From: Candidatus Omnitrophota bacterium
GTDB taxonomy: Bacteria; Omnitrophota; Gorgyraeia; JAZDFF01
Assembly: GCA_043808095.1 (NCBI GenBank)
Contig: JAZDFF010000001.1
Span: 94,230 to 158,229, forward strand
DNA length: 64,000 nt
Reading direction: 5' to 3'
Position 1 is the stretch's first letter. Each line of letters starts with the position of its first letter. Positions 31,933 through 58,893 of the stretch are shown here, one piece after another. Made by a program: the position numbers and the translations under genes. The notes under the pieces are model-generated. The model had not been told where the DNA came from, did not search any database, and saw nothing but the letters and a program-made list of their open reading frames with translations.

Positions 31933-32442
31933 ATGGGTTTACGAGATAAGAGAAAAAACATTGAAGAGAAACTTTTAGATGTAGACGCCTCCATGTCTGG
32001 GACACTTTCTTTTCGGGATCCGGTTAACATGCGCATAAATGGCAAATTTGAAGGCACGCTTGAGGTAAAGGGAAATTTAACTATTGGAGATACTGCTGTG
32101 GTCGAAGCCCATATTGTCGGAGATAATATTACTATTTCCGGAAAAGTAAAAGGGGATATCATTGCCAAACAGAGATTGACTCTTACTTCCACGGCCGTTG
32201 TTAACGGTGATGTTAGGGCCCCAAAATTAAATATTATTGAGGGGGCAATCTTACAGGGTAGATGCATTATGTTGGGCGATGTGCTCGATAGCGAAGAACT
32301 GGCGAGATACCTTGAGATTGATCTCGACTCTATCTTAGATTGGGCAAATTCCGGCAAGGTACCCGCTTTTAAGGACAATAACGAATGGAGGTTTGAGCGC
32401 AAGAAAATAGACGAATGGATATCTAAAGGAGCACTTAAATAA
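31933..32442 (+). CDS. Bactofilin domain protein with C-terminal excisionase-type HTH
   Basis: Beta-helical bactofilin repeats ending GDVRAPKLNIIEGAILQGRCIM; C-terminal LDSEELARYLEIDLDSILDWANSGKVPAFKDNNEWRFERKKIDEWI fits the Xis/HTH_17 pattern. Confidence 0.75.
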   Translation: MGLRDKRKNIEEKLLDVDASMSGTLSFRDPVNMRINGKFEGTLEVKGNLTIGDTAVVEAHIVGDNITISGKVKGDIIAKQRLTLTSTAVVNGDVRAPKLNIIEGAILQGRCIMLGDVLDSEELARYLEIDLDSILDWANSGKVPAFKDNNEWRFERKKIDEWISKGALK

Positions 32443-32617: not shown

Positions 32618-32935
32618 ATGGCGGAAAAACTATTAACGGTCAGGGAAGCAGCACAATTCTTGGGCATTTCAGAAAAAGAGGTAATAGATCTTTCGCAGGA
32701 AGGAATTATCCCTGCATATAGAATTGCTGGTACCCATTTAAGATTTAGGCAGGATCAATTACAAGATATTCGTTCCAAGATAAAAGACTCTCTTAAAGAG
32801 TCGCACAAAAAGATTATTTTCCAGGATAACAGCTATTCTTCGGGAGAGAGGTTTTTTGACTTCTTCTATTTTAATGATTTTTATATCGTGGCATTAGTAG
32901 TAATTATTACAATCTTATTTTTATTTTTTAGATGA
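32618..32935 (+). CDS. Excisionase-family HTH DNA-binding protein with C-terminal hydrophobic anchor
   Basis: LLTVREAAQFLGISEKEVIDLSQEGIIPAYRIAGTHLRFRQDQL (HTH_17 pattern); C-terminal FYIVALVVIITILFLFF. Confidence 0.65.
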   Translation: MAEKLLTVREAAQFLGISEKEVIDLSQEGIIPAYRIAGTHLRFRQDQLQDIRSKIKDSLKESHKKIIFQDNSYSSGERFFDFFYFNDFYIVALVVIITILFLFFR

Positions 32936-33045
32936 AGGGGTTTGCCCCGTTAGAGATACACAAGAATTTAGACCGTAATTACGGAAATGTTTTGTTACGA
33001 AAAATAAATAAGAGAAAATATTCCCTATCACTAACAGGGTTTGCC
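32928..33045 (+). promoter_or_regulatory. Two 19-bp direct repeats GGGTTTGCCCCGTTAGAGA flanking a CGTAATTACGG palindrome, upstream of larB
   Basis: Identical 19-mers at 32928-32946 and 33027-33045; each contains a GGGG-N4-CCCC mini-hairpin. Confidence 0.5.
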
Positions 33046-33086
33046 CCGTTAGAGAAAAGCATCGTGGGGTAAAAATTTCGAATTTA

Positions 33087-33791
33087 ATGGAATCATCCCA
33101 ACATTCGGTTAGTAAAAAAGGAAGAAATTCTCTCACGGGGTTTGTTGATTTAGGGTTTGCCAAGGTTGATATTACAAGAGCCAGAAGGTGCGGTTTGCCT
33201 GAGGTGATATACTGCCCGGGGAAAGACCTTAATCAGATAAAAAGCATTGCTAGGAAAATCTTAAAATCAAACGATTTACTTATTTTGACTCGCCTTGAAA
33301 ATAATATTTACAAAAAATTAAAAAAGGCATTTATCGGACTTAAGTTCATCCCCGAGGCCAAATTTGCCTACCTGATTAAGAAAAAAATTCCGTTTAAAAA
33401 AGGCAGGGTCTTAGTAATGACAGCAGGGACTTCAGATACGCCGGTTGCCGAGGAGGCAGTCGCCATATTACAGATACTGGGTAATAAAGTTTTAAGACTT
33501 TATGACGTGGGAGTCGCAGGAGTTCACCGGTTGTTCAATCATATTGATGTTATAAGAAAGGCCTCGGTAATCGTGGTGGTTGCCGGGATGGAAGGGGCCT
33601 TGGCAAGTATTGTCTCTGGCCTGGTAAAAACTCCGGTAGTTGCCGTGCCAACGAGCTGCGGTTATGGAGCAAACTTTCGGGGCCTGTCAGCGTTACTGAC
33701 TATGTTAAACTGCTGTGCTCCCGGGGTAGCGGTGGTAAACATTGATAATGGTTTTGGTGCGGGGTATTTTGCTAATCTGATAAATAAGTAA
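33087..33791 (+). CDS. larB: LarB-like (PurE-fold) nickel-pincer cofactor biosynthesis carboxylase/hydrolase
   Basis: DLGFAKVDITRARRCGLPEVIYCPGK N-terminal motif and PurE-like MTAGTSDTPVAEEA...VVAGMEGALAS core. Confidence 0.7.
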   Translation: MESSQHSVSKKGRNSLTGFVDLGFAKVDITRARRCGLPEVIYCPGKDLNQIKSIARKILKSNDLLILTRLENNIYKKLKKAFIGLKFIPEAKFAYLIKKKIPFKKGRVLVMTAGTSDTPVAEEAVAILQILGNKVLRLYDVGVAGVHRLFNHIDVIRKASVIVVVAGMEGALASIVSGLVKTPVVAVPTSCGYGANFRGLSALLTMLNCCAPGVAVVNIDNGFGAGYFANLINK

Positions 33792-33798
33792 TTGAAAA

Positions 33799-34221
33799 AT
33801 GAGTAACAAACGAATTACTTTAAATGAAGCCATAAAATTTCACGGGCATCTGGGTCCATATCTGGTTCTAGGGCTTTTGGCAGGAAACCTGGCGTTTGAA
33901 AAAATAGGCTTTAAGAAATATTTCGGCATTAGAATAAAAGTCTGGGGCGCAAGCAAGAAACCAAAATCCTGCCTTATTGACGGTCTGCAGCTTTCAAGTG
34001 GTGCCACTTACGGCAAAGGCAATATCGAGAAACTAAATAGCTCAAAAATAAAGATTGATTTTATTAATGAAGAGAATAACAAAAAGATTTCCTTTGTATT
34101 CAAAAAACCAATAATCAAATTATTGCAAAAAGTTAAGACACATGCGGAATCTGAAATTTTAGCGAAGGAACTATATAAAACCAATCTTTCTGAAATATTT
34201 AATATAGCATCAATAAACTAA
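33799..34221 (+). CDS. FmdE-like domain protein
   Basis: FHGHLGPYLVLGLLAG resembles the FmdE HGHxCPG core (Cys replaced by Gly); 140 aa. Confidence 0.45.
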   Translation: MSNKRITLNEAIKFHGHLGPYLVLGLLAGNLAFEKIGFKKYFGIRIKVWGASKKPKSCLIDGLQLSSGATYGKGNIEKLNSSKIKIDFINEENNKKISFVFKKPIIKLLQKVKTHAESEILAKELYKTNLSEIFNIASIN

Positions 34222-34223
34222 AA

Positions 34224-35555
34224 ATGGCCCTTTCAGGTCTAGATATCTATAAGGTTTTACCCAAAACAAACTGCAGGGACTGCGGATTTCCGACGTGTCT
34301 TGCCTTTGCCATGCAGCTTGCCAAGAAGGCAGTGAGCCTGGATAAGTGTCCGCATTTAACCGCAGAGGCAAAAGGAAAACTTGAACAAGCAGCGTTACCG
34401 CCAATTCGCTTAGCCAAAATTGGGAAAGATGACCGCGTCCTTGAAATAGGGAACGAATCCGTAATGTTCCGTCATGAGGAAAAATTCCATCATCCCTGCG
34501 GCATAGGATTTATCTTAGAGGATAGTTTATCCGACGCAGAGCTTGATAAGAACATGAATTCCATAAAATCCTTAAGGTTTGAGCGTATAGGCCAGGAGCT
34601 TAAACCGGATCTTGTTGCCATTTCCCAGACCAAATCCGATAAAGAAAGATTCTTAAAAATTCTAAGGGCGGTTCTGGAAAAACTGGATTTAAATCCAGTA
34701 TTAATGAGTAGCGATGAACAGACGTTAAAAGAAGCCTTAGAGCTAAGCAAAGATAAAAAACCATTGATTTATGCAGCGACCAATTCCAATTATAAGATGA
34801 TGACAGGCTTTTCTAAGAATTACGGCTTGCCGCTTGTAGTTAAGTCAGATAATCTTGATGATTTGTCGCAATTAGTCAAGTCCATAAATGATTTGGGCGT
34901 GGAAGATTTAATCCTTGATCCGGGAACAAAGGGCCTGGGTCAGCGGATTTCCGATCTAACTCAGATTCGGCGCCTAGCATTAAAGAAAAGTTTTAGACAA
35001 CTAGGATATCCGACTATTGCGGTCATATCGGAAAGAGACCCCTATAAAGAAGTAATTCAGGTAAGTAGTCTTTTGGCTAAATATGCCAGTATTATTTTAA
35101 TGAAGGGACTAGAACCCTGGCAGGCTTTAAGTATCTTTACGCTAAGACAAAATATTTATTCTGACCCGCAAAAGCCTCTACAAGTTGAACCCAAGGTTTA
35201 TCCCATTGGAAAAGTTAGCGATATTTCGCCGCTTTTAGTGACCACTAATTTCTCCCTGAGTTACTACACGGTGCTTTCAGAGGTTGAGGCAAGCAAGGTT
35301 CCTTCCTATATTATGAGCGTAGATACCGAAGGCATGTCGGTGTTGACCGCCTGGGCAGCAGAGAAATTTACGGCCGATAAGGTTACAGAGGCAATCAATA
35401 AAAATAATCTTGGTTCTTTGGTTTCGCATAAGAAGGTAATCATCCCGGGCTATGTGGCAGTAATGAGTGGGGATCTTGAGGATAAAAGCGGTTGGCAGAT
35501 AGTTGTTGGTCCGCGCGAGGCCTCCGGGATTCCGAGTTTCTTGAAGAAATTATAG
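34224..35555 (+). CDS. acsC: Corrinoid iron-sulfur protein large subunit AcsC
   Basis: N-terminal 4Fe-4S motif CRDCGFPTC...C, TIM-barrel and C-terminal corrinoid-binding region, 443 aa; adjacent to acsD and acsE. Confidence 0.8.
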   Translation: MALSGLDIYKVLPKTNCRDCGFPTCLAFAMQLAKKAVSLDKCPHLTAEAKGKLEQAALPPIRLAKIGKDDRVLEIGNESVMFRHEEKFHHPCGIGFILEDSLSDAELDKNMNSIKSLRFERIGQELKPDLVAISQTKSDKERFLKILRAVLEKLDLNPVLMSSDEQTLKEALELSKDKKPLIYAATNSNYKMMTGFSKNYGLPLVVKSDNLDDLSQLVKSINDLGVEDLILDPGTKGLGQRISDLTQIRRLALKKSFRQLGYPTIAVISERDPYKEVIQVSSLLAKYASIILMKGLEPWQALSIFTLRQNIYSDPQKPLQVEPKVYPIGKVSDISPLLVTTNFSLSYYTVLSEVEASKVPSYIMSVDTEGMSVLTAWAAEKFTADKVTEAINKNNLGSLVSHKKVIIPGYVAVMSGDLEDKSGWQIVVGPREASGIPSFLKKL

Positions 35556-35659
35556 ACCGCTAAAACGCAAAAATTCCGCTAAAGCGCAAAATTTAATTGA
35601 ATAATTTCTTTGCGATTTTGCGCCTGCATGCCGTCAGTTAGGGGTTTTGCGCCTTTGCG

Positions 35660-37621
35660 GTGTTAAATTGTTTAAAAGTTAGAAAAGTGATGGAAAAGTA
35701 TAAGATAACATTTTATCCGGATAATAAGACCATCGAGGTTGAGAAAGGTAAAACCATACTTTCTGCAGCGATCTCTGCCGGGGTTTACATTAACTCAGGT
35801 TGCGGCGGAGACGGTGTCTGCGGAAGGTGTAAAATCATTGTTAAGAAGGGCGAAGTAAGTTCTCAACCGACTGGCAGGCTTAGCCTGGATGAGAGAAGGC
35901 GGCAAGTCTATCTTTCCTGTTTGACTACCGTCCAGAGTGATTTAGAGGTCGAGGTTTTACCCGAATCAAGACTGGATTTTGATAAATTATCCAGCGAAGA
36001 ACTGGATTTAAGATTAAAAGGCCTTTATTCTGCCTCAGAGGCAGTTGAACAAATAAGCACACTTAAAGAACGGGATTTATTTATTCACTCGCCTTTAGCC
36101 ACCAAATTATATTTGGAAATACCCAAACCGACGTTAGACGATAAAATCAGCGATTTGGAAAGAATCTATCGCTCGATTCGCAAGATTCAGGATATCCCCA
36201 TTATGCAGACTGGTCTTTCTAATATCAGGTGCCTGGGTGAATTATTGCGCGCATCTGATTGGAAGGTCACCGTAACCCTGGGAAAAAGAAACGGGACCAC
36301 TGAGATAGTCTTGATTGAGCCACAAGATACCTCGAAAAAGAATTTCGGGGCGTGTTTTGATATCGGCACCACAACTATTTCCGGCCAGCTCGTGGATTTA
36401 AATAGCAAGAAGGTGCTTGGAACCCGGGCCACCTATAACAAGCAAGCCAGTTTTGGTAGCGACGTAATCAGCAGGATAATCTTTGCCCAGAAACAAGATG
36501 GTCTTGAAAAATTACATCATGCAGTTATTGACAGTATGAATCAGATGATTCTAGAGATGATTAGAGAGCATGGCCTTGACCTTAATGATGTAAATTGTGC
36601 TTTATGCGCAGGAAATACCACGATGATTCATCTCTTGTTACGTGTTGACCCGACCTACATTAGAAGAGAGCCCTATATACCGACGGCTAATTTTATCCCG
36701 GTGATTAGGGCGGCTGAGGCCGGCATAAAGATTAATCCCAGAGGTTTGCTTGCCTGCGTCCCGGGGGTTTCTAGTTACGTGGGAGGAGATGTTGTTTCCG
36801 GGGTTTTAGCCTGCAGTCTGGATAGAGAAAAAGACCTTTGTATATTAATTGATATCGGTACTAATGGCGAGATCGTTTTAGGAAACCGGGAATGGCTTAT
36901 ATCCTGCTCTGCCTCGGCAGGCCCGGCCTTTGAAGGAAGCGGCATAACTTCAGGCACCAGGGCTACAAAAGGGGCAATCCAGAAAGTTAAGATAGATTCT
37001 GCTCAAGGCAATGTAAACTTTACGACTATAACTGGTGCTCTGCCTATCGGAATTTGCGGTTCAGGTTATATTGATTTATTGGCAGAATTTTTAAAAGCCG
37101 GCCTTATTGATAGACAAGGCAAATTCATAACCTCTTCTAAATTTAAGGCTATCCGCGACGGCGAATTTGGCAAGGAATTTGTTTTAGTGCCTAAGAATGA
37201 AAGTAATTTAAAGTCTGATATTGTGATTACTGAAGCGGATATTGAAAATTTAAAAAGGGCAAAGGCGGCAATATTTTCCGCTACGAGTAGTTTAGCTAAA
37301 CACATGGGGATCGAGCTTTCTAAGATAAATAAGTTTTTTATTGCCGGCGGGTTCGGCACTTATTTAGATATTGATAATGCGGTAAGAATCGGGCTCCTGC
37401 CGGATCTGCCGCGTGAAAAATTTAGCTTTGTGGGAAATAGCTCGTTGTTCGGCGCAAGAGAAATCCTTTTTTCTTCCCAGGCTTTTAGTAAGGCAAAAGA
37501 GATTGCCGGGAAAATGACCTATTATGAATTATCCGTTGAGCCGGATTATATGGAAGAATATATGGCGGCTTTATTTTTCCCGCATACGAATTTGAGTAAG
37601 TTTCCGAGCGTGAAGGCATAA
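35660..37621 (+). CDS. Reductive activator of CFeSP (RACo-like; 2Fe-2S ferredoxin plus ASKHA ATPase)
   Basis: N-terminal plant-type ferredoxin motif CGGDGVCGRCK; C-terminal ASKHA domain; true start may be internal MEKYKITF at 35690. Confidence 0.75.
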   Translation: MLNCLKVRKVMEKYKITFYPDNKTIEVEKGKTILSAAISAGVYINSGCGGDGVCGRCKIIVKKGEVSSQPTGRLSLDERRRQVYLSCLTTVQSDLEVEVLPESRLDFDKLSSEELDLRLKGLYSASEAVEQISTLKERDLFIHSPLATKLYLEIPKPTLDDKISDLERIYRSIRKIQDIPIMQTGLSNIRCLGELLRASDWKVTVTLGKRNGTTEIVLIEPQDTSKKNFGACFDIGTTTISGQLVDLNSKKVLGTRATYNKQASFGSDVISRIIFAQKQDGLEKLHHAVIDSMNQMILEMIREHGLDLNDVNCALCAGNTTMIHLLLRVDPTYIRREPYIPTANFIPVIRAAEAGIKINPRGLLACVPGVSSYVGGDVVSGVLACSLDREKDLCILIDIGTNGEIVLGNREWLISCSASAGPAFEGSGITSGTRATKGAIQKVKIDSAQGNVNFTTITGALPIGICGSGYIDLLAEFLKAGLIDRQGKFITSSKFKAIRDGEFGKEFVLVPKNESNLKSDIVITEADIENLKRAKAAIFSATSSLAKHMGIELSKINKFFIAGGFGTYLDIDNAVRIGLLPDLPREKFSFVGNSSLFGAREILFSSQAFSKAKEIAGKMTYYELSVEPDYMEEYMAALFFPHTNLSKFPSVKA

Positions 37622-37627
37622 TTAACA

Positions 37628-38389
37628 ATGGGATATATATTTGCAGTCTGCGGCAAAGGCGGCACGGGAAAAACCACCATTACTGCTTTACTTATAAATT
37701 GGCTAAAGGCCAATAGAGAGTGTTCGGTCTTGGCGGTTGATGCTGACCCTAACAGCAATTTGTCAAATTCGCTGGGCGTGGCTAAAAACAAGAGCCTTGC
37801 GGATATTGTGGATAGTATTACCAAAGACCCTAAAGTTGTGCCTAGTAACATGAGTAAGGACCATTATATCGAATATCAGGTTCAGTTGGGGTTATCCGAA
37901 AGTAATGGTTTTGATCTTTTGAGCATGGGGCATCCTGAGGGCCCGGGCTGTTATTGCTATGTTAATAATGTCTTACGAAACATTATGCAAAAATTAATCA
38001 AAAATTACGATTTTGTAGTGATTGACAATGAGGCAGGCATGGAACACCTGTCGCGGCGCACTATGAGGGCTGCGGATTGCCTGCTTTTAGTCAGCGACCA
38101 TTCTGTCGTGGGCTTGCGTTCAGCCAAGAGGATTTTAGACCTGGCCCGAGACATGGGCATAAAGTTTAAGGCCGCAAAACTTATTGTCAATCGCGCTGAT
38201 AAAGACTGCCGTCACTTGGAAGATAAGATAAAAGAGTCGGGATTAGATTGCTTAGGTTGTCTTTCCGAAGATAAAACTTTAGGGAAACTAAGCGTTGAAG
38301 ATAAGCCCGTATCTAAATTGGGTAAGGATGCATTAATATTAGGGCAATTCGATAAAATAGTTAAAAATTTATTCGGTTTGAAAGATTAA
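37628..38389 (+). CDS. cooC: CooC/AcsF-type nickel-insertion ATPase (MinD/ParA fold)
   Basis: Deviant Walker A CGKGGTGKTT and Cys-x-Cys motif GCYCY. Confidence 0.8.
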   Translation: MGYIFAVCGKGGTGKTTITALLINWLKANRECSVLAVDADPNSNLSNSLGVAKNKSLADIVDSITKDPKVVPSNMSKDHYIEYQVQLGLSESNGFDLLSMGHPEGPGCYCYVNNVLRNIMQKLIKNYDFVVIDNEAGMEHLSRRTMRAADCLLLVSDHSVVGLRSAKRILDLARDMGIKFKAAKLIVNRADKDCRHLEDKIKESGLDCLGCLSEDKTLGKLSVEDKPVSKLGKDALILGQFDKIVKNLFGLKD

Positions 38390-38393
38390 AAAA

Positions 38394-39368
38394 ATGGCTA
38401 TAGAATTATATAAAGAAAAGTGGGTCAATAATGTTAATGAGGTGATTTTAGGCGCCACAAAAGAAGAGGGCGGAAGTCGCGCATTTTCTTTGAAGGTGGG
38501 CGGCGAGTCCTGTCTGCCTTATTTATTTGAAGAGGGTTCTATGCCCAATGCGCCCGTGGTTGCCCAGGAGATTTGGGATATCGAGCCTACTGATTGGCCG
38601 GAGATCTTGAGAGAGCCGTTTAAAGATGTCCTGGCAAATCCCCTGGAGTGGGCCGAGAAGGCAGTTAAGGCTTATGGCGCGAATTTATTGTGTCTAAAAT
38701 TACAGGGTGCGCATCCTGATTCAGGAAACCGGCCTAACGATGAATTAGTCAAGATCTTAAAAGATATCTTAAAGACAGTCAATGTGCCTTTGATCGTTTC
38801 AGGATGCGGTGATGACGCCAAAGATAACCTCCTCATGCCTCTTTTAAGCGAGGCGACTAAAGGAGAACGCATCCTTTTTGGCGACGCTGTCCAGGATAAC
38901 TATAAGACGATTACGGCAAGCGTCTTAGCTGACGGACATAATATTATTGCCGAGTCGCCCATTGATATTAATATTGCTAAGCAACTTAATATCCTGATTA
39001 CTGACATGGGGTTGCCTGGGGATAAGATTGTGATTAATCCTACGGTGGGCGCTTTAGGTTATGGCCTTGAGTATGCTTATTCCATAATGGAGAGGGCCAG
39101 GCTTGCGGCATTGGCCGGTGATAAGATGATGAGTATGCCTTTTATATGTTTCATCGGCCAGGAGGCTACCAAGGCCAAAGAGGCTAAGGCCACTATAGAG
39201 GAACATCCCCAATGGGGCAAGGAATTAGAGCGGGGGATTGTTTGGGAGGCGGTTACTGCCTGTGCATTTTTACAGTCCGGAGCAGACATCCTGGTTATGC
39301 GTCATCCCCAGGCGATAAAACTGATTAAAGAGACGATAGAAGAGTTAATGTCTAAGAGTAACCAGTAA
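38394..39368 (+). CDS. acsD: Corrinoid iron-sulfur protein small subunit AcsD
   Basis: 324 aa TIM-barrel-like protein between cooC and acsE; size and context match CFeSP small subunit. Confidence 0.65.
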   Translation: MAIELYKEKWVNNVNEVILGATKEEGGSRAFSLKVGGESCLPYLFEEGSMPNAPVVAQEIWDIEPTDWPEILREPFKDVLANPLEWAEKAVKAYGANLLCLKLQGAHPDSGNRPNDELVKILKDILKTVNVPLIVSGCGDDAKDNLLMPLLSEATKGERILFGDAVQDNYKTITASVLADGHNIIAESPIDINIAKQLNILITDMGLPGDKIVINPTVGALGYGLEYAYSIMERARLAALAGDKMMSMPFICFIGQEATKAKEAKATIEEHPQWGKELERGIVWEAVTACAFLQSGADILVMRHPQAIKLIKETIEELMSKSNQ

Positions 39369-39446
39369 CCAGAGTACAGAAGCCAGGGCTAAGTATTTTT
39401 CTGGTTTCTGTTTACAGGTTTCTGATCTCTACCGAGCGAAGCGAGG
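39369..39446. repeat. Repeat module ending in CCGAGCGAAGCGAGG just before the acsE ATG
   Basis: ACCAGAGTACAGAAGCCAG and CCGAGCGAAGCGAGG shared with 11955-12103. Confidence 0.8.
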
Positions 39447-39451
39447 ATAAA

Positions 39452-40240
39452 ATGATTATAGTCGGCGAACTCATAAATGGGATGTACAAAGAGGTAAGAG
39501 AGGCACTTGCCAAAAAGGATAAAAAGGTTATCCAGGATTTGGCTAAAAGACAGATTGAGGCAGGCGCCTCGATTTTAGATGTTAACTGCGGCCCGGCATC
39601 GCGCGATCCGATAGCCGATATGAAATGGTTAGTCGAGACCATTCAAGAGACAAACAATGTCTCGCTTTCCTTGGATAGCACCAAACCTGATGTGATTGAG
39701 GCAGGGCTAAAACTGGTTAAAAATAAGCCAATGATTAATTCAACCAGCGCAGACCCAGACAGATTAGAGGTATTGGTAGGGCTGGCCATAAAATATAAGG
39801 CCTTTTTAATTGGCCTCGCTTTAGATAAAAGGGGCGTGCCGCAAGATAAGGACAGGCGCCTGGAATTAGCTGCGCAAATTATCGGTTTTTGCCAGGAGAA
39901 AGGCTTTCCTACCGAGGATTTATATCTAGATCCGGTGGTTTTACCGGTCAATGTGGCCCAGACACAGCAGGTTTCTATGCTTGAGGCCTTACGGGAATTT
40001 AAGTTATTGTCTGACCCTGCCCCTAAAACCATTATTGGCTTAAGCAATGTTTCTCAAGGAGCAAAAGACCGCAGTATTATCAATCGTATATTTCTGGTGA
40101 TGTCTTTATCAAATGGCTTAGACGCAGCTATACTAGATCCCCTGGACAAAGCACTTATGGACTCTTTTATAACTGCCGAACTTATTTTAAACAAACAGAT
40201 TTATTGCGATTCTTATCTGGATGCCTATAAAAAGAGATGA
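39452..40240 (+). CDS. acsE: Methyltetrahydrofolate:corrinoid/iron-sulfur protein methyltransferase AcsE
   Basis: Pterin-binding domain, MIIVGELINGMYKEV...LDVNCGP, 262 aa. Confidence 0.8.
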   Translation: MIIVGELINGMYKEVREALAKKDKKVIQDLAKRQIEAGASILDVNCGPASRDPIADMKWLVETIQETNNVSLSLDSTKPDVIEAGLKLVKNKPMINSTSADPDRLEVLVGLAIKYKAFLIGLALDKRGVPQDKDRRLELAAQIIGFCQEKGFPTEDLYLDPVVLPVNVAQTQQVSMLEALREFKLLSDPAPKTIIGLSNVSQGAKDRSIINRIFLVMSLSNGLDAAILDPLDKALMDSFITAELILNKQIYCDSYLDAYKKR

Positions 40241-41111
40241 GGGAAAAATGGAGACAAAAAAAGACCGGTTATTCATAGTAATCTCGCTGCCGAAGCGAAT
40301 CACTTTTAAATTAGCCTCTTTGTTTATTTTATTTATCTTAATTATTATTAAACTGTATGATGTCTTTGCAAAGCCTAATCCGCAGGCAATGTCTAATGAG
40401 ATGTACCTTACTATAAGTATGATTCTTGTGATTTATCTGTGGATTGCTGAGAGCATCGATGTGCAGAAGTATCGCTTGGCTGAAAATGAACTGCTGAATG
40501 TCCAAAGGCGTATAAAAAATGAACATATAAATACCATTGCTTCATTGATTTTAGCCCAGGAAGCCAAAGACCCATATAACCGCGGTCATTCTATCAGGGT
40601 GACTCAATTTGCCATGCTTATGGGCAGGCGTTTAAGTTTATCGAGGGAAGAGTTAGAGGTATTGGAACGTGCAGCAATCTTGCATGATATCGGAAAAGTC
40701 GGTATAAGCGATACGCTCCTTAGCAAGGTAGAGAAGTTAACCAAAGAGGAGATGGATGAGATTAGAAGGCACGTGGTATTAAGCGATACCATACTAAAGC
40801 CCCTGCAATTTTTAAAAAATGAACGCGTACTGATTCGCCAACATCACGAGCACTATGATGGCATGGGTTATCCTGATAAATTAAAAGGCGAAGAGATTCT
40901 TCTTGGGGCGAGGATTTTGGCTGTCGCTGATTTTTACGATGCCGTCAGTTCTGACCGGCCATATCGTAATGCCCTTTCAAAGTTTGAGATTATCGGGGAA
41001 TTAAAGAAAAACAGGGGAAAACAATTCGACTCGAAATTAGCAGATATCCTGCTTGAGTTAATCGAGAGCGATGATGTCGGCCTAAGTCAGATTGTTGAGT
41101 CGGCAAGATAA
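40221..41111 (+). CDS. Membrane-anchored HD-GYP domain phosphodiesterase
   Basis: N-terminal TM segments; HD motif AILHDIGK and HHEHYDGMGYP; start may be internal MET at 40248. Confidence 0.8.
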   Translation: MPIKRDEGKMETKKDRLFIVISLPKRITFKLASLFILFILIIIKLYDVFAKPNPQAMSNEMYLTISMILVIYLWIAESIDVQKYRLAENELLNVQRRIKNEHINTIASLILAQEAKDPYNRGHSIRVTQFAMLMGRRLSLSREELEVLERAAILHDIGKVGISDTLLSKVEKLTKEEMDEIRRHVVLSDTILKPLQFLKNERVLIRQHHEHYDGMGYPDKLKGEEILLGARILAVADFYDAVSSDRPYRNALSKFEIIGELKKNRGKQFDSKLADILLELIESDDVGLSQIVESAR

Positions 41112-50622: not shown

Positions 50623-50982
50623 GGGCAGGTACCCAAGCGGTCAAAGGGGACAGACTGTTTAAAAGCAGCGCCCCGACGAAAGTCGTGGTGGAAAAGTAGG
50701 TGAATTCAGGGAAACCCTCTCGTAACTACGAAAGGTAATCCTGAGCCAATCCTCGCACAAAGCTGGCAGGCAGAAGGCCTGCTTGCTGAAGCTTTAGCGA
50801 AGGCAGGTGCAGAGACTAAGCGCCTACCACCTAAAACTGGATGAAGCCCAGTTTTATCCCAAGCGAAGTTAAGGGATAACTTCTCTGGTTAAGGTGATGA
50901 GATAGTCCAAGCCTTGAGGAAACTCAAGGGATACTTGAAATCTGTTGCACACGCTTCAGAGGTTCGAATCCTCTCCTGCCCA
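50623..50982 (+). tRNA. tRNA-Tyr(GTA) interrupted by a group I intron in the anticodon loop
   Basis: Exons GGGCAGGTACCCAAGCGGTCAAAGGGGACAGACTGT + AAATCTGTTGCACACGCTTCAGAGGTTCGAATCCTCTCCTGCCCA form a class-II Tyr cloverleaf (acceptor GGGCAGG/CCTGCCC, anticodon stem ACAGA/TCTGT, loop CTGT|AAA). Confidence 0.75.
50659..50937 (+). ncRNA. Group I intron (IC3-like, no ORF) within tRNA-Tyr
   Basis: 5' splice site after U with GCAG guide-sequence partner; terminal G; core elements AATCCTGAGCCAA, GGTGCAGAGACTAAGCG and GAGATAGTCC resemble cyanobacterial tRNA-Leu intron P3/P7 elements as recalled from memory. Confidence 0.7.
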
Positions 50983-57455: not shown

Positions 57456-58100
57456 ATGAACTATAACGATTTTCGTAAAAAATTCCAATCTCTGCCTATC
57501 TTTACCAGCAAAGACGTAGTTAGGCTGCAGCCGGACAAACAAGCTGTGCGCAATCAGATTAATCGCTGGCAGGCAAAGGGGCTGCTTATTCAATTAAAGC
57601 GGGGGTTATATGCGTTTGATGAAATCGACCGCAAGGTCGACTTAAACCTTCATTTTATTGCTAATAATCTTTATGCGCCTTCATATATCAGCTTAGAGTC
57701 GGCATTAAATTTTTATGGTTTAATCCCGGAGAAGGCAGTTGATTTAACCTCTGTAACTACTAAAAAAACCGCCATTTTTAAGAATAAATTAGGAGTTTTT
57801 ATCTATCAGCACATTAAGCCAAATGCCCTTAGAGGATTTAGGCAGGTTAAAGATAATTCTGGTTATACCTTTTTTATTGCTGAGCCTGAAAAAGCGATTG
57901 TGGATTTTTTTTATTTGAACTTAAGCAGATTTAAGCCCAAAGACAGGGACATTTTTGAAGTCTCATACCGTTTTCAGAACATTGAAGGACTGAAAGTTTT
58001 AAAGATCTTAGAGTATGCCAATTTGTTTAACAACCTTAAACTTTTGAAGGTCTGCCAGAATTTCTGCAGATTCATCAAGAAAGAGGCAAAAAATGATTGA
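57456..58100 (+). CDS. abiEi: AbiEi-like antitoxin/transcriptional regulator
   Basis: N-terminal wHTH with QINRWQAKGLLIQLKRGLYAF; overlaps the following nucleotidyltransferase gene by 8 nt. Confidence 0.7.
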   Translation: MNYNDFRKKFQSLPIFTSKDVVRLQPDKQAVRNQINRWQAKGLLIQLKRGLYAFDEIDRKVDLNLHFIANNLYAPSYISLESALNFYGLIPEKAVDLTSVTTKKTAIFKNKLGVFIYQHIKPNALRGFRQVKDNSGYTFFIAEPEKAIVDFFYLNLSRFKPKDRDIFEVSYRFQNIEGLKVLKILEYANLFNNLKLLKVCQNFCRFIKKEAKND

Positions 58101-58893
58101 GGTCATCAAGCAACAATTTGTAGAAAATATGTCGACCGGAGAAAAGATTAACAGGGTGCGAGAGTTCTTGCAGACCTTGGTTTTAAAGATTATTTACGAC
58201 AAGGATTATTTCAATAATCTTGCCTTTGTTGGAGGCACGGCCTTAAGGTTTTTATACAGCCTAAGGCGTTTCTCCGAAGACCTTGATTTTTCTCTGGTAA
58301 ATAAGGAAGGTTATAATTTCAGGAAAATTAATGCGGAGGTTATTGAAGGATTTGGTTCTTTTGGCTTTGAAATAGAAAGCAGACCCAAAGATGAAAAGAA
58401 TGTTCACAGCGCAATGCTGAGATTTAAGGGATTGTTAAAGGCGCTTGGGCTTTCTGATATGGATGAGCAGAAACTTTCTGTTAAACTTGAGATAGATACC
58501 AATCCGCCAAAGGGTTGGAATGTTCAAACTAGCGTTGTTAATAAGACCTATCTTTTGAATATCGTCCATTTTGATTTATCTTCTTCGTTTGCCACAAAAT
58601 TACATGCCTGTTTTTACCGCAAATTTGTGAAGGGCCGCGATTTTTATGACCTCATCTGGTATCTTGGCAAGAAAATCGTCCCCAATTTTGTATTATTAAA
58701 CAATGCGATCGCGCAAACCCAGGGGAAAAATCCCGGTATAGATGTAGATAATTTTAAGGAGTTTATTTTAGAAAACCTGAAGAAGATCGATTTTGATAAG
58801 GCAAAAGCAGATGTTGAAAGGTTCTTAGAGGATAAAAACGAACTTAAGCTTTTTGATTTTGCGGTAATTAGGGGCGCAATTGAATTACTCTAG
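58093..58893 (+). CDS. abiEii: AbiEii/AbiGii-family nucleotidyltransferase toxin
   Basis: GGTALRFLYSLRRFSEDLDFS NTase motif (GG...DxD); 266 aa. Confidence 0.75.
   Translation: MIEVIKQQFVENMSTGEKINRVREFLQTLVLKIIYDKDYFNNLAFVGGTALRFLYSLRRFSEDLDFSLVNKEGYNFRKINAEVIEGFGSFGFEIESRPKDEKNVHSAMLRFKGLLKALGLSDMDEQKLSVKLEIDTNPPKGWNVQTSVVNKTYLLNIVHFDLSSSFATKLHACFYRKFVKGRDFYDLIWYLGKKIVPNFVLLNNAIAQTQGKNPGIDVDNFKEFILENLKKIDFDKAKADVERFLEDKNELKLFDFAVIRGAIELL

Follow-up and report, generated by a model that had tools for sequence, protein, structure and literature searches.

The larB-fmdE-acsC gene cluster of Gygaellales Omnitrophota as the probable methyl-transfer part of a Wood-Ljungdahl pathway encoded at two loci

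The 64,000-nucleotide stretch of Candidatus Omnitrophota DNA considered here (contig JAZDFF010000001.1, positions 94,230 to 158,229; hereafter the window) carries at positions 33087 to 40240 a seven-gene cluster, in which the genes of a corrinoid iron-sulfur protein (CFeSP) system follow larB and an fmdE-like gene, and carbon monoxide dehydrogenase (CODH) and acetyl-CoA synthase (ACS) genes are missing from the surroundings. The locus raises the question of whether this corrinoid system works alone or belongs to a pathway encoded partly elsewhere, and whether larB and the fmdE-like gene take part in it. The region is probably the methyl-transfer half, i.e., CFeSP, methyltransferase, activator, and AcsF, of a bacterial Wood-Ljungdahl set whose genes, in Gygaellales Omnitrophota, are divided between two conserved loci. 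The seven genes are as follows.

33087..33791, plus strand: LarB (NCBIfam equivalog NF033503, 282 bits, cutoff 175)
33799..34221, plus strand: FmdE-like single-domain protein of 140 amino acids (Pfam PF02663, E 4.8e-17)
34224..35555, plus strand: acsC, CFeSP large subunit (NF003195, 580 bits, cutoff 306; PF04060 and PF03599)
35660..37621, plus strand: acsV/RACo, 653 amino acids, predicted ATP-dependent reductive activator of the corrinoid protein, 2Fe-2S and ASKHA (Pfam Fer2, RACo_linker, Raco_middle, and RACo_C_ter)
37628..38389, plus strand: AcsF-type ATPase of the MinD/CooC family, 253 amino acids, predicted nickel insertase of the ACS A-cluster (best PDB match CooC1, 3kje)
38394..39368, plus strand: acsD, CFeSP small subunit (NF003376, 428 bits, cutoff 280; PF03599)
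39452..40240, plus strand: acsE, methyltetrahydrofolate:CFeSP methyltransferase (NF005719, 298 bits, cutoff 259; PF00809 Pterin_bind)

From larB through acsE, the genes are separated by 7, 2, 104, 6, 4, and 83 bp, in that order. AcsC matches the Carboxydothermus CFeSP (PDB 2h9a) at E 5.6e-140, is covered by NF003195 over residues 1-442, and has an intact 4Fe-4S motif (C17-x2-C20-x4-C25-x16-C42), which places it among the CFeSP large subunits (AcsC/CdhE); AcsD, scoring above its curated cutoff and encoded with AcsC, is placed among the small subunits (AcsD/CdhD). AcsE is assigned to the methyltransferases at the level of NF005719, the narrower NF040758 model reaching only 193, under its exception cutoff of 370. 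The activator has the domain architecture of RACo/AcsV, and its NF040756 AcsV score of 659 bits is below the exception cutoff of 800, so that the equivalog-level name is uncertified. With regard to the missing partners, Pfam scans of 50 of the 54 plus-strand open reading frames (ORFs) of at least 100 amino acids in the window yielded no CODH/ACS family, and tblastn with the AcsB and CooS of Acetoanaerobium noterae, probes validated on NCBIfam equivalogs at 1107 and 668 bits, respectively, gave no match in the window at E <= 1e-3. The canonical operon, with acsA or cooS and acsB beside acsCDE, is absent from the window, the remaining genes of which are almost all housekeeping genes (murG to ftsA, hisAF, trpE, secDF, mfd, gatAB, ctpA, tsaD, mgtC, tilS, ftsH, folP, cdaA, pdxJ, and others). 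A first-pass annotation of this DNA had described acsC, a RACo-like activator, cooC, acsD, and acsE as contiguous behind larB and an FmdE-like gene and had noted the lack of acsA/cooS and acsB nearby; all seven genes were recovered at the positions listed above, and the scans and validated probes confirm the lack.

The ATPase, named cooC and described as having a Cys-x-Cys nickel motif in that annotation, bears on the missing ACS. It carries a deviant Walker A P-loop (GKGGTGKT), and the Cys-x-Cys motif is borne out (GCYCY). Because the protein is closer to the acsD-adjacent paralog of A. noterae (42% identity, 184 bits) than to the cooS-adjacent CooC of the same organism (34% identity, 92 bits), it is, judged by sequence, of the AcsF type, the family of the ACS nickel insertase, rather than a CODH-type CooC. 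The P-loop, the Cys-x-Cys motif, and the kinship with the acs paralog all agree with membership in AcsF, nickel insertion itself being predicted. The AcsF family reportedly inserts nickel into ACS.

A gene for ACS is found at a second locus in the relatives. The families Profunditerraquicolaceae and UBA12090 were previously reported to encode a Wood-Ljungdahl pathway with "AcsB-E," and some of their species to lack AcsA/CooS and formate dehydrogenase (Seymour et al. 2023), and a 2026 preprint on complete Omnitrophota genomes does not discuss the pathway. A homolog search seeded with clostridial AcsB returned Clostridia only, and the Omnitrophota proteins were reached through representatives at 50% identity, which were picked by an amino-acid composition suggesting a low-GC genome and then followed by cluster name. 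Briefly, a full HMMER pass of clostridial AcsB against the cluster representatives gave approximately 25 full-length bacterial-type clusters, one of which (P0264) is annotated as AcsB from Candidatus Omnitrophota, and a search seeded with P0264 gave 436 relatives at E <= 1e-50, many of them named Omnitrophota. All five look-ups gave one and the same gene context, queA-tgt-trmD-rplS-rnhB-UPF0102-fchA-folD-metF-(Pyr_redox_2)-acsB-TPR-polA-glgA-coaE-rho; no CODH gene stands beside acsB in any of the five, and cooS/acsA was not located at any locus examined. At least one genome with the same cluster as the window has ACS elsewhere. In the metagenome-assembled genome (MAG) VGKG01, one AcsB (P0540, MBM3249345.1) lies on metagenome contig Ga0194113_10000011, and the larB-fmdE-acsC cluster (locus L036) lies on contig Ga0194113_10000032 (VGKG01000002.1), with LarB as MBM3249508.1 and AcsC, RACo, the ATPase, and AcsE as the accessions ending in 510, 511, 512, and 514. 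The accession numbers of AcsB and LarB differ by 163 within a single block, which means that both come from the same MAG submission, in which the two loci sit on separate contigs. Another AcsB, P0549, was rejected as a link to the window's genome, being from another sample. The suggestion that CODH/ACS is encoded elsewhere is supported for ACS, on the strength of the second conserved block in relatives, of VGKG01, and of the AcsF-type ATPase, whereas CODH was not located and is absent beside acsB in every context, in line with the published survey (Seymour et al. 2023).

The Omnitrophota acsB loci (L163-L179, e.g., L165:2102-5181) also vary at the start of acsB. In some, an overlapping Pyr_redox_2 ORF of approximately 300 amino acids precedes the gene; in other lineages AcsB has 840-865 amino acids, its N-terminal extension being a remnant of the Pyr_redox_2 ORF (37% identity, E 2e-13), and still other lineages have a full Pyr_redox_2-AcsB fusion of 1029 amino acids.

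The functions of the encoded proteins fit together as one half of the pathway. AcsE transfers the methyl group of methyl-tetrahydrofolate to Co(I) of the cobamide in the AcsC/AcsD CFeSP, RACo/AcsV uses ATP and its own 2Fe-2S cluster to re-reduce corrinoid that has fallen to Co(II), and the AcsF-type ATPase loads nickel into ACS. The methylated CFeSP would then exchange its methyl group with ACS, which would make or cleave acetyl-CoA and which would be encoded, as observed in relatives rather than in the window's genome, at the second locus directly after fchA-folD-metF without an adjoining CODH gene. The larB and fmdE genes are nickel/cobalt-cofactor genes and are probably co-transcribed with acsC; LarB would, judging from homology, supply a nickel-pincer precursor, and the FmdE-like protein most likely relays or chaperones Ni or Co.

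Alternatively, AcsE, AcsCD, and RACo could transfer methyl groups without ACS, for instance as a split MetH-like donor to a MesB-type core methionine synthase or to some other acceptor. In keeping with this, AcsB and CooS were absent from 161 loci with fetched flanks of up to 10 kb on each side, CFeSP is a proposed source of methyl groups for the methionine synthases MesB and MesC (Price et al. 2021), and the AcsF-type ATPase gene is missing from 8 of 48 related loci (L008, L025, L030, L035, L044, L053, L065, and L074). However, AcsB is widespread in Omnitrophota, the window cluster retains the ACS maturation ATPase, the Pfam scans found no MetE/Mes-like gene in the window, and a role in methionine synthesis could be added to the ACS role rather than replace it. 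Because a relative with the same cluster has ACS elsewhere and because the ATPase is of the AcsF type, methyl transfer without ACS is very unlikely, and the stand-alone corrinoid system that the first-pass annotation had put forward as one option is not favored over the split pathway.

The cluster is conserved together with its surroundings. In a scan of one genome per GTDB species, the subfamily of the window's FmdE-like protein was found in 461 genomes, and loci were compared for the best 80 of these together with approximately 70 further metagenome loci, i.e., approximately 150 related loci. Nearly all of the 80 genomes are labeled Omnitrophota, and those covered by the Seymour et al. 2023 survey are members of Profunditerraquicolaceae and UBA12090, families of the order Gygaellales (GTDB GIF10); the window's FmdE-like protein itself is 100% identical to MFH1201381.1, encoded on a 159,674-bp contig of a Candidatus Omnitrophota MAG. 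The shared order across the approximately 150 loci is tsaD-mgtC-bactofilin-HTH-larB-fmdE-acsC-RACo-ATPase-acsD-acsE, where HTH denotes a helix-turn-helix gene, followed by a variable gap and then by tilS-ftsH. Upstream of fmdE, larB is present in 72 of the 73 loci with room for it (automatic gene-boundary scoring gave 71 of 73, having missed the larB of L061 that is visible in the locus view). The sole exception is L077, in which a GltD-like oxidoreductase gene occupies the larB position and the fmdE-acsC pair is kept. Downstream of fmdE, acsC is present in all 69 loci (69/69), and among the 48 related loci with room for them acsD is present in 48 and acsE in 46. All neighboring genes between tsaD and acsE, functionally unrelated pairs included, have a median spacing in the range of -16 to 23 bp. 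The two loci without acsE are L025, which instead has genes for a STAS/anti-sigma kinase and a CHASE2-SpoIIE phosphatase, and L065, which has homologous ORFs in the same place.

The window LarB is, as its residues and scores indicate, a bona fide, full-length ortholog and not merely the LarB-like enzyme of the earlier description. It scores above the equivalog cutoff, aligns ungapped to Lactiplantibacillus plantarum LarB (PDB 7mj0, E 8e-65), and keeps the equivalents of catalytic Cys221, Ser127, and Glu180 as C210, S116, and E169. The LarB reaction yields the pyridinium-dicarboxylate compound from which the nickel-pincer cofactor is made. The locus shares with larABCDE of L. plantarum, the nickel-pincer system of lactate racemase, a full-length LarB with its catalytic residues. 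Unlike that system, the window has no larA, larC, or larE (the Pfam scans found neither the LarC nor the LarA family, in agreement with the earlier remark that LarC and LarE are absent here), and the only nickel-related neighbors of larB are the genes for the FmdE-like protein and AcsF. TilS was considered as a cryptic LarE and rejected, since it is a full TilS (TIGR02432, 201 bits) with a LarE score far under the cutoff. At approximately position 33381 in larB, an independent Logan assembly of the same strain (L001), otherwise identical across the gene, has a run of six A residues in place of the seven in the window; the shorter run splits larB into two ORFs and reflects either an assembly error or homopolymer variation.

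The FmdE-like protein scores 62.7 bits against PF02663 (gathering threshold 22.9). Its AlphaFold (AF2) model has a predicted local distance difference test (pLDDT) value of 89.6, and the only PDB matches of the model in Foldseek are 2gvi, 2glz, and 3d00, at template modeling (TM) scores of 0.68-0.73; both score and fold are those of the FmdE family. These three crystal structures show a metal that is exposed to solvent and has His15, His17, Cys19, and Cys55 of the FHGHxC motif as ligands; it is Zn, or mixed Zn/Ni in 2GLZ, and most family members were noted beside metal transporters (Axelrod et al. 2010). The protein of 2GLZ, Desulfitobacterium hafniense Dhaf_2992, is a single-domain PF02663 protein with which the window protein shares the alpha+beta core fold (TM 0.73), the FHGH motif, and the equivalents of Cys55, Asp58, Gln61, and Thr67. 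Unlike 2GLZ, however, the Omnitrophota members all have Gly at the position of Cys19 and read FHGHLG; His15, His17, and Cys58 are invariant, so that three of the four ligands (FHGHxC plus the distal Cys) are kept, giving an open His2Cys site in a protein that also has invariant Lys residues.

Furthermore, when metagenomes were scanned with the most divergent members as seeds, outgroup homologs of 35-50% identity were retrieved, the contigs of which carry planctomycete-type DUF1559 genes. The outgroup fmdE-like gene overlaps the start of cbiM-cbiN-cbiQ-cbiO in two related arrangement types, and in a third it lies between the S component and the T/A components of an energy-coupling factor (ECF) transporter. 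The S units of the outgroup transporters begin with (M/V)HIPDGFLS, which we take to be an N-terminus of the NikM rather than the CbiM type; NikM/CbiM-type transporters can carry both metals, Ni and Co. Metal-transporter neighbors are thus common to the family of 2GLZ and to the nearest outgroup homologs of the window protein, whereas the partner of the Omnitrophota gene departs from the family norm in being acsC rather than a transporter gene. Formylmethanofuran dehydrogenase is no part of this context either, as no Fmd/Fwd subunit gene was found in the window or in the related loci. Its ligands and its relatives in ECF Ni/Co operons make the FmdE-like protein most likely a small cytoplasmic acceptor, relay, or chaperone of Ni/Co with a His2Cys site, and it is predicted to bind Ni/Co (or Zn) in the cytoplasm.

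It is a separate matter whether larB and fmdE serve the acs genes, as conserved adjacency and tight spacing alone do not tie them together because the genomes are streamlined and the tsaD-acsE block is rigid. A reading that we rate somewhat below an even chance is that the two genes have no functional tie to acs and are neighbors in a rigid, vertically inherited block, with LarB serving an unrelated nickel-pincer enzyme and the FmdE-like protein serving general metal homeostasis. The packing of the whole tsaD-to-acsE stretch, clearly unrelated genes included, agrees with such a block, as do the replacement of larB in L077, the acs cluster of A. noterae, which has neither larB nor fmdE, and the outgroup FmdE-like proteins, which are linked to transporters instead of acs genes. 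On the other hand, the fmdE-acsC pair survives in L077, the sole locus with a different upstream context; a Ni/Co theme is common to LarB, the FmdE-like protein (the Zn/Ni site in 2GLZ and the ECF operons), AcsF, and the cobamide protein; and the 7 and 2 bp that separate larB, fmdE, and acsC in the window are short. Because L077 keeps fmdE-acsC without larB, fmdE is more likely than larB to serve the acs system, and LarB may be a mere neighbor in a frozen synteny block.

Stronger forms of a tie are less probable. It is very doubtful that LarB and the FmdE-like protein are new accessory factors dedicated to a CODH-less ACS/CFeSP, for which alone they would produce or insert a cofactor of the nickel-pincer type or supply nickel. 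Their adjacency is kept in nearly all loci, the open His2Cys site and the invariant Lys residues of the FmdE-like protein would suit such a role, the clade often lacks AcsA/CooS (Seymour et al. 2023), and neighboring lar genes are at present leading to the discovery of new nickel-pincer enzymes (Semersky et al. 2026). That last development keeps a more exotic role of LarB alive, the support for which is here one of position. Conversely, neither the cluster nor the window encodes LarC or LarE, no known CFeSP or ACS chemistry needs a pincer cofactor, the caveat of rigid synteny applies here too, and larB is dispensable at this position in L077. The FmdE-like protein on its own account, with or without LarB, may be a dedicated, previously undescribed Ni/Co delivery or cofactor-assembly factor for the CODH-less ACS/CFeSP of Omnitrophota, such as a chaperone that supplies AcsF or a protein that carries a pincer-type cofactor, which is unlikely, if less so than the joint LarB/FmdE role just described. 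The metal-cofactor pair proposed in the first-pass annotation is therefore plausible from its near-constant adjacency and the outgroup ECF Ni/Co operons, whereas its functional tie to the corrinoid protein is unproven, unrelated neighbors being packed equally. That annotation was to be given up if acsAB lay in a canonical operon elsewhere and the larB/fmdE adjacency was not conserved in relatives; acsB does lie elsewhere, although not in a canonical acsAB operon, and the adjacency is conserved.

Two known arrangements of these genes are close to that of the window. The acs cluster of the acetogen A. noterae (locus L082) encodes AcsC, RACo/AcsV, the AcsF-type ATPase, AcsD, and AcsE at 36-42% identity to those of the window. 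The order acsC-acsV-acsF-acsD-acsE presumably matches that of the Moorella thermoacetica cluster, in which acsA and acsB would precede acsC where the Omnitrophota have larB and the fmdE-like gene. All 14 model acetogens compared keep acsB clustered with acsCDEF (Shin et al. 2016), unlike Omnitrophota, where it follows fchA-folD-metF at another locus. Dehalococcoides mccartyi has an incomplete Wood-Ljungdahl pathway, likewise reported to have ACS/CFeSP without AcsA/CooS, which possibly runs toward cleavage for C1 units and the CFeSP of which is a proposed methyl donor for MesB (Price et al. 2021; Seymour et al. 2023). Unlike Dehalococcoides, which lacks AcsE and MetF (Price et al. 2021), Omnitrophota keep AcsE and MetF-FolD-FchA.

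Several points weigh against a split pathway with nickel/cobalt accessory genes. The split is atypical by the acetogen rule just cited. The view of the window's own genome for AcsB, CooS, LarC, LarE, and LarA is 64 kb of a 159.7-kb contig, and the co-occurrence of acsB and the cluster in the same genome is seen in one related MAG only, which is a metagenomic bin. Adjacency is weak evidence of function here, as tsaD, mgtC, and bactofilin are equally tight and conserved. Of the elements that would delimit the transcription unit, promoter and terminator consensus sequences gave no useful signal above background in the region, and neither larB nor acsC was found to be preceded by a riboswitch or other Rfam element. 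As to metal specificity, the crystal of 2GLZ, a family member of the FmdE-like protein, contained mixed Zn/Ni. With respect to novelty, the pathway content of the clade was already reported (Seymour et al. 2023); the two-locus architecture and the fixed larB-fmdE prefix were not found in the literature searched, nor was any paper linking FmdE with CbiM/NikM or LarB with acs genes.

Some further features of the window were recorded. At the downstream flank of the cluster, an HD-GYP-type (HD_5) gene (40221-41111, plus strand) shares its first 20 nt with the end of acsE; it was rejected as part of the acs unit, since it directly follows acsE in just one other locus, L079. At the upstream flank, a bactofilin with a C-terminal HTH_17 fusion (31933-32442, plus strand) is followed by a 105-amino-acid HTH_17 protein with a hydrophobic C-terminal tail (32618-32935, plus strand), and this pair lies directly upstream of larB in most related genomes. 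The spacer between the HTH gene and larB is unusually long (151 bp) and contains two copies of an exact 19-nt direct repeat, GGGTTTGCCCCGTTAGAGA (32938-32956 and 33037-33055, plus strand), which has no further copies in the window, was found among the related loci only in the same strain, and compares with 0.02 chance matches expected. An AbiEi/AbiEii-type toxin-antitoxin pair lies at 57456-58893 (plus strand). Between a tRNA-Thr and a tRNA-Gly gene, a tRNA-Tyr(GTA) gene (50623-50982, plus strand) is interrupted by a 279-nt group I intron (50659-50937; Rfam RF00028, 86.6 bits), which follows U35 of the anticodon loop, and ARAGORN detects this tRNA only once the intron has been removed manually. 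In bacteria, group I introns are known in tRNA genes for Leu, fMet, Ile, and Arg and are not known to us in one for Tyr.

The analysis gives the layout of the Wood-Ljungdahl genes in a large uncultured clade, the order Gygaellales, with fchA-folD-metF-acsB at one locus and larB-fmdE-acsC-acsV-acsF-acsD-acsE at the other, and thereby a departure from the rule in acetogens that acsB travels with acsCDEF. It also cautions against inferring "partial pathways" or "stand-alone corrinoid systems" from one contig. With regard to FmdE, the family is known by its crystal structures and not by its function; a subfamily whose His2Cys site is open, and which heads ECF Ni/Co importers or adjoins a cobamide/nickel enzyme system, makes a role in metal relay directly testable, and if the FmdE-like protein were indeed a dedicated Ni/Co factor, this would be the first defined biochemical role for the family.

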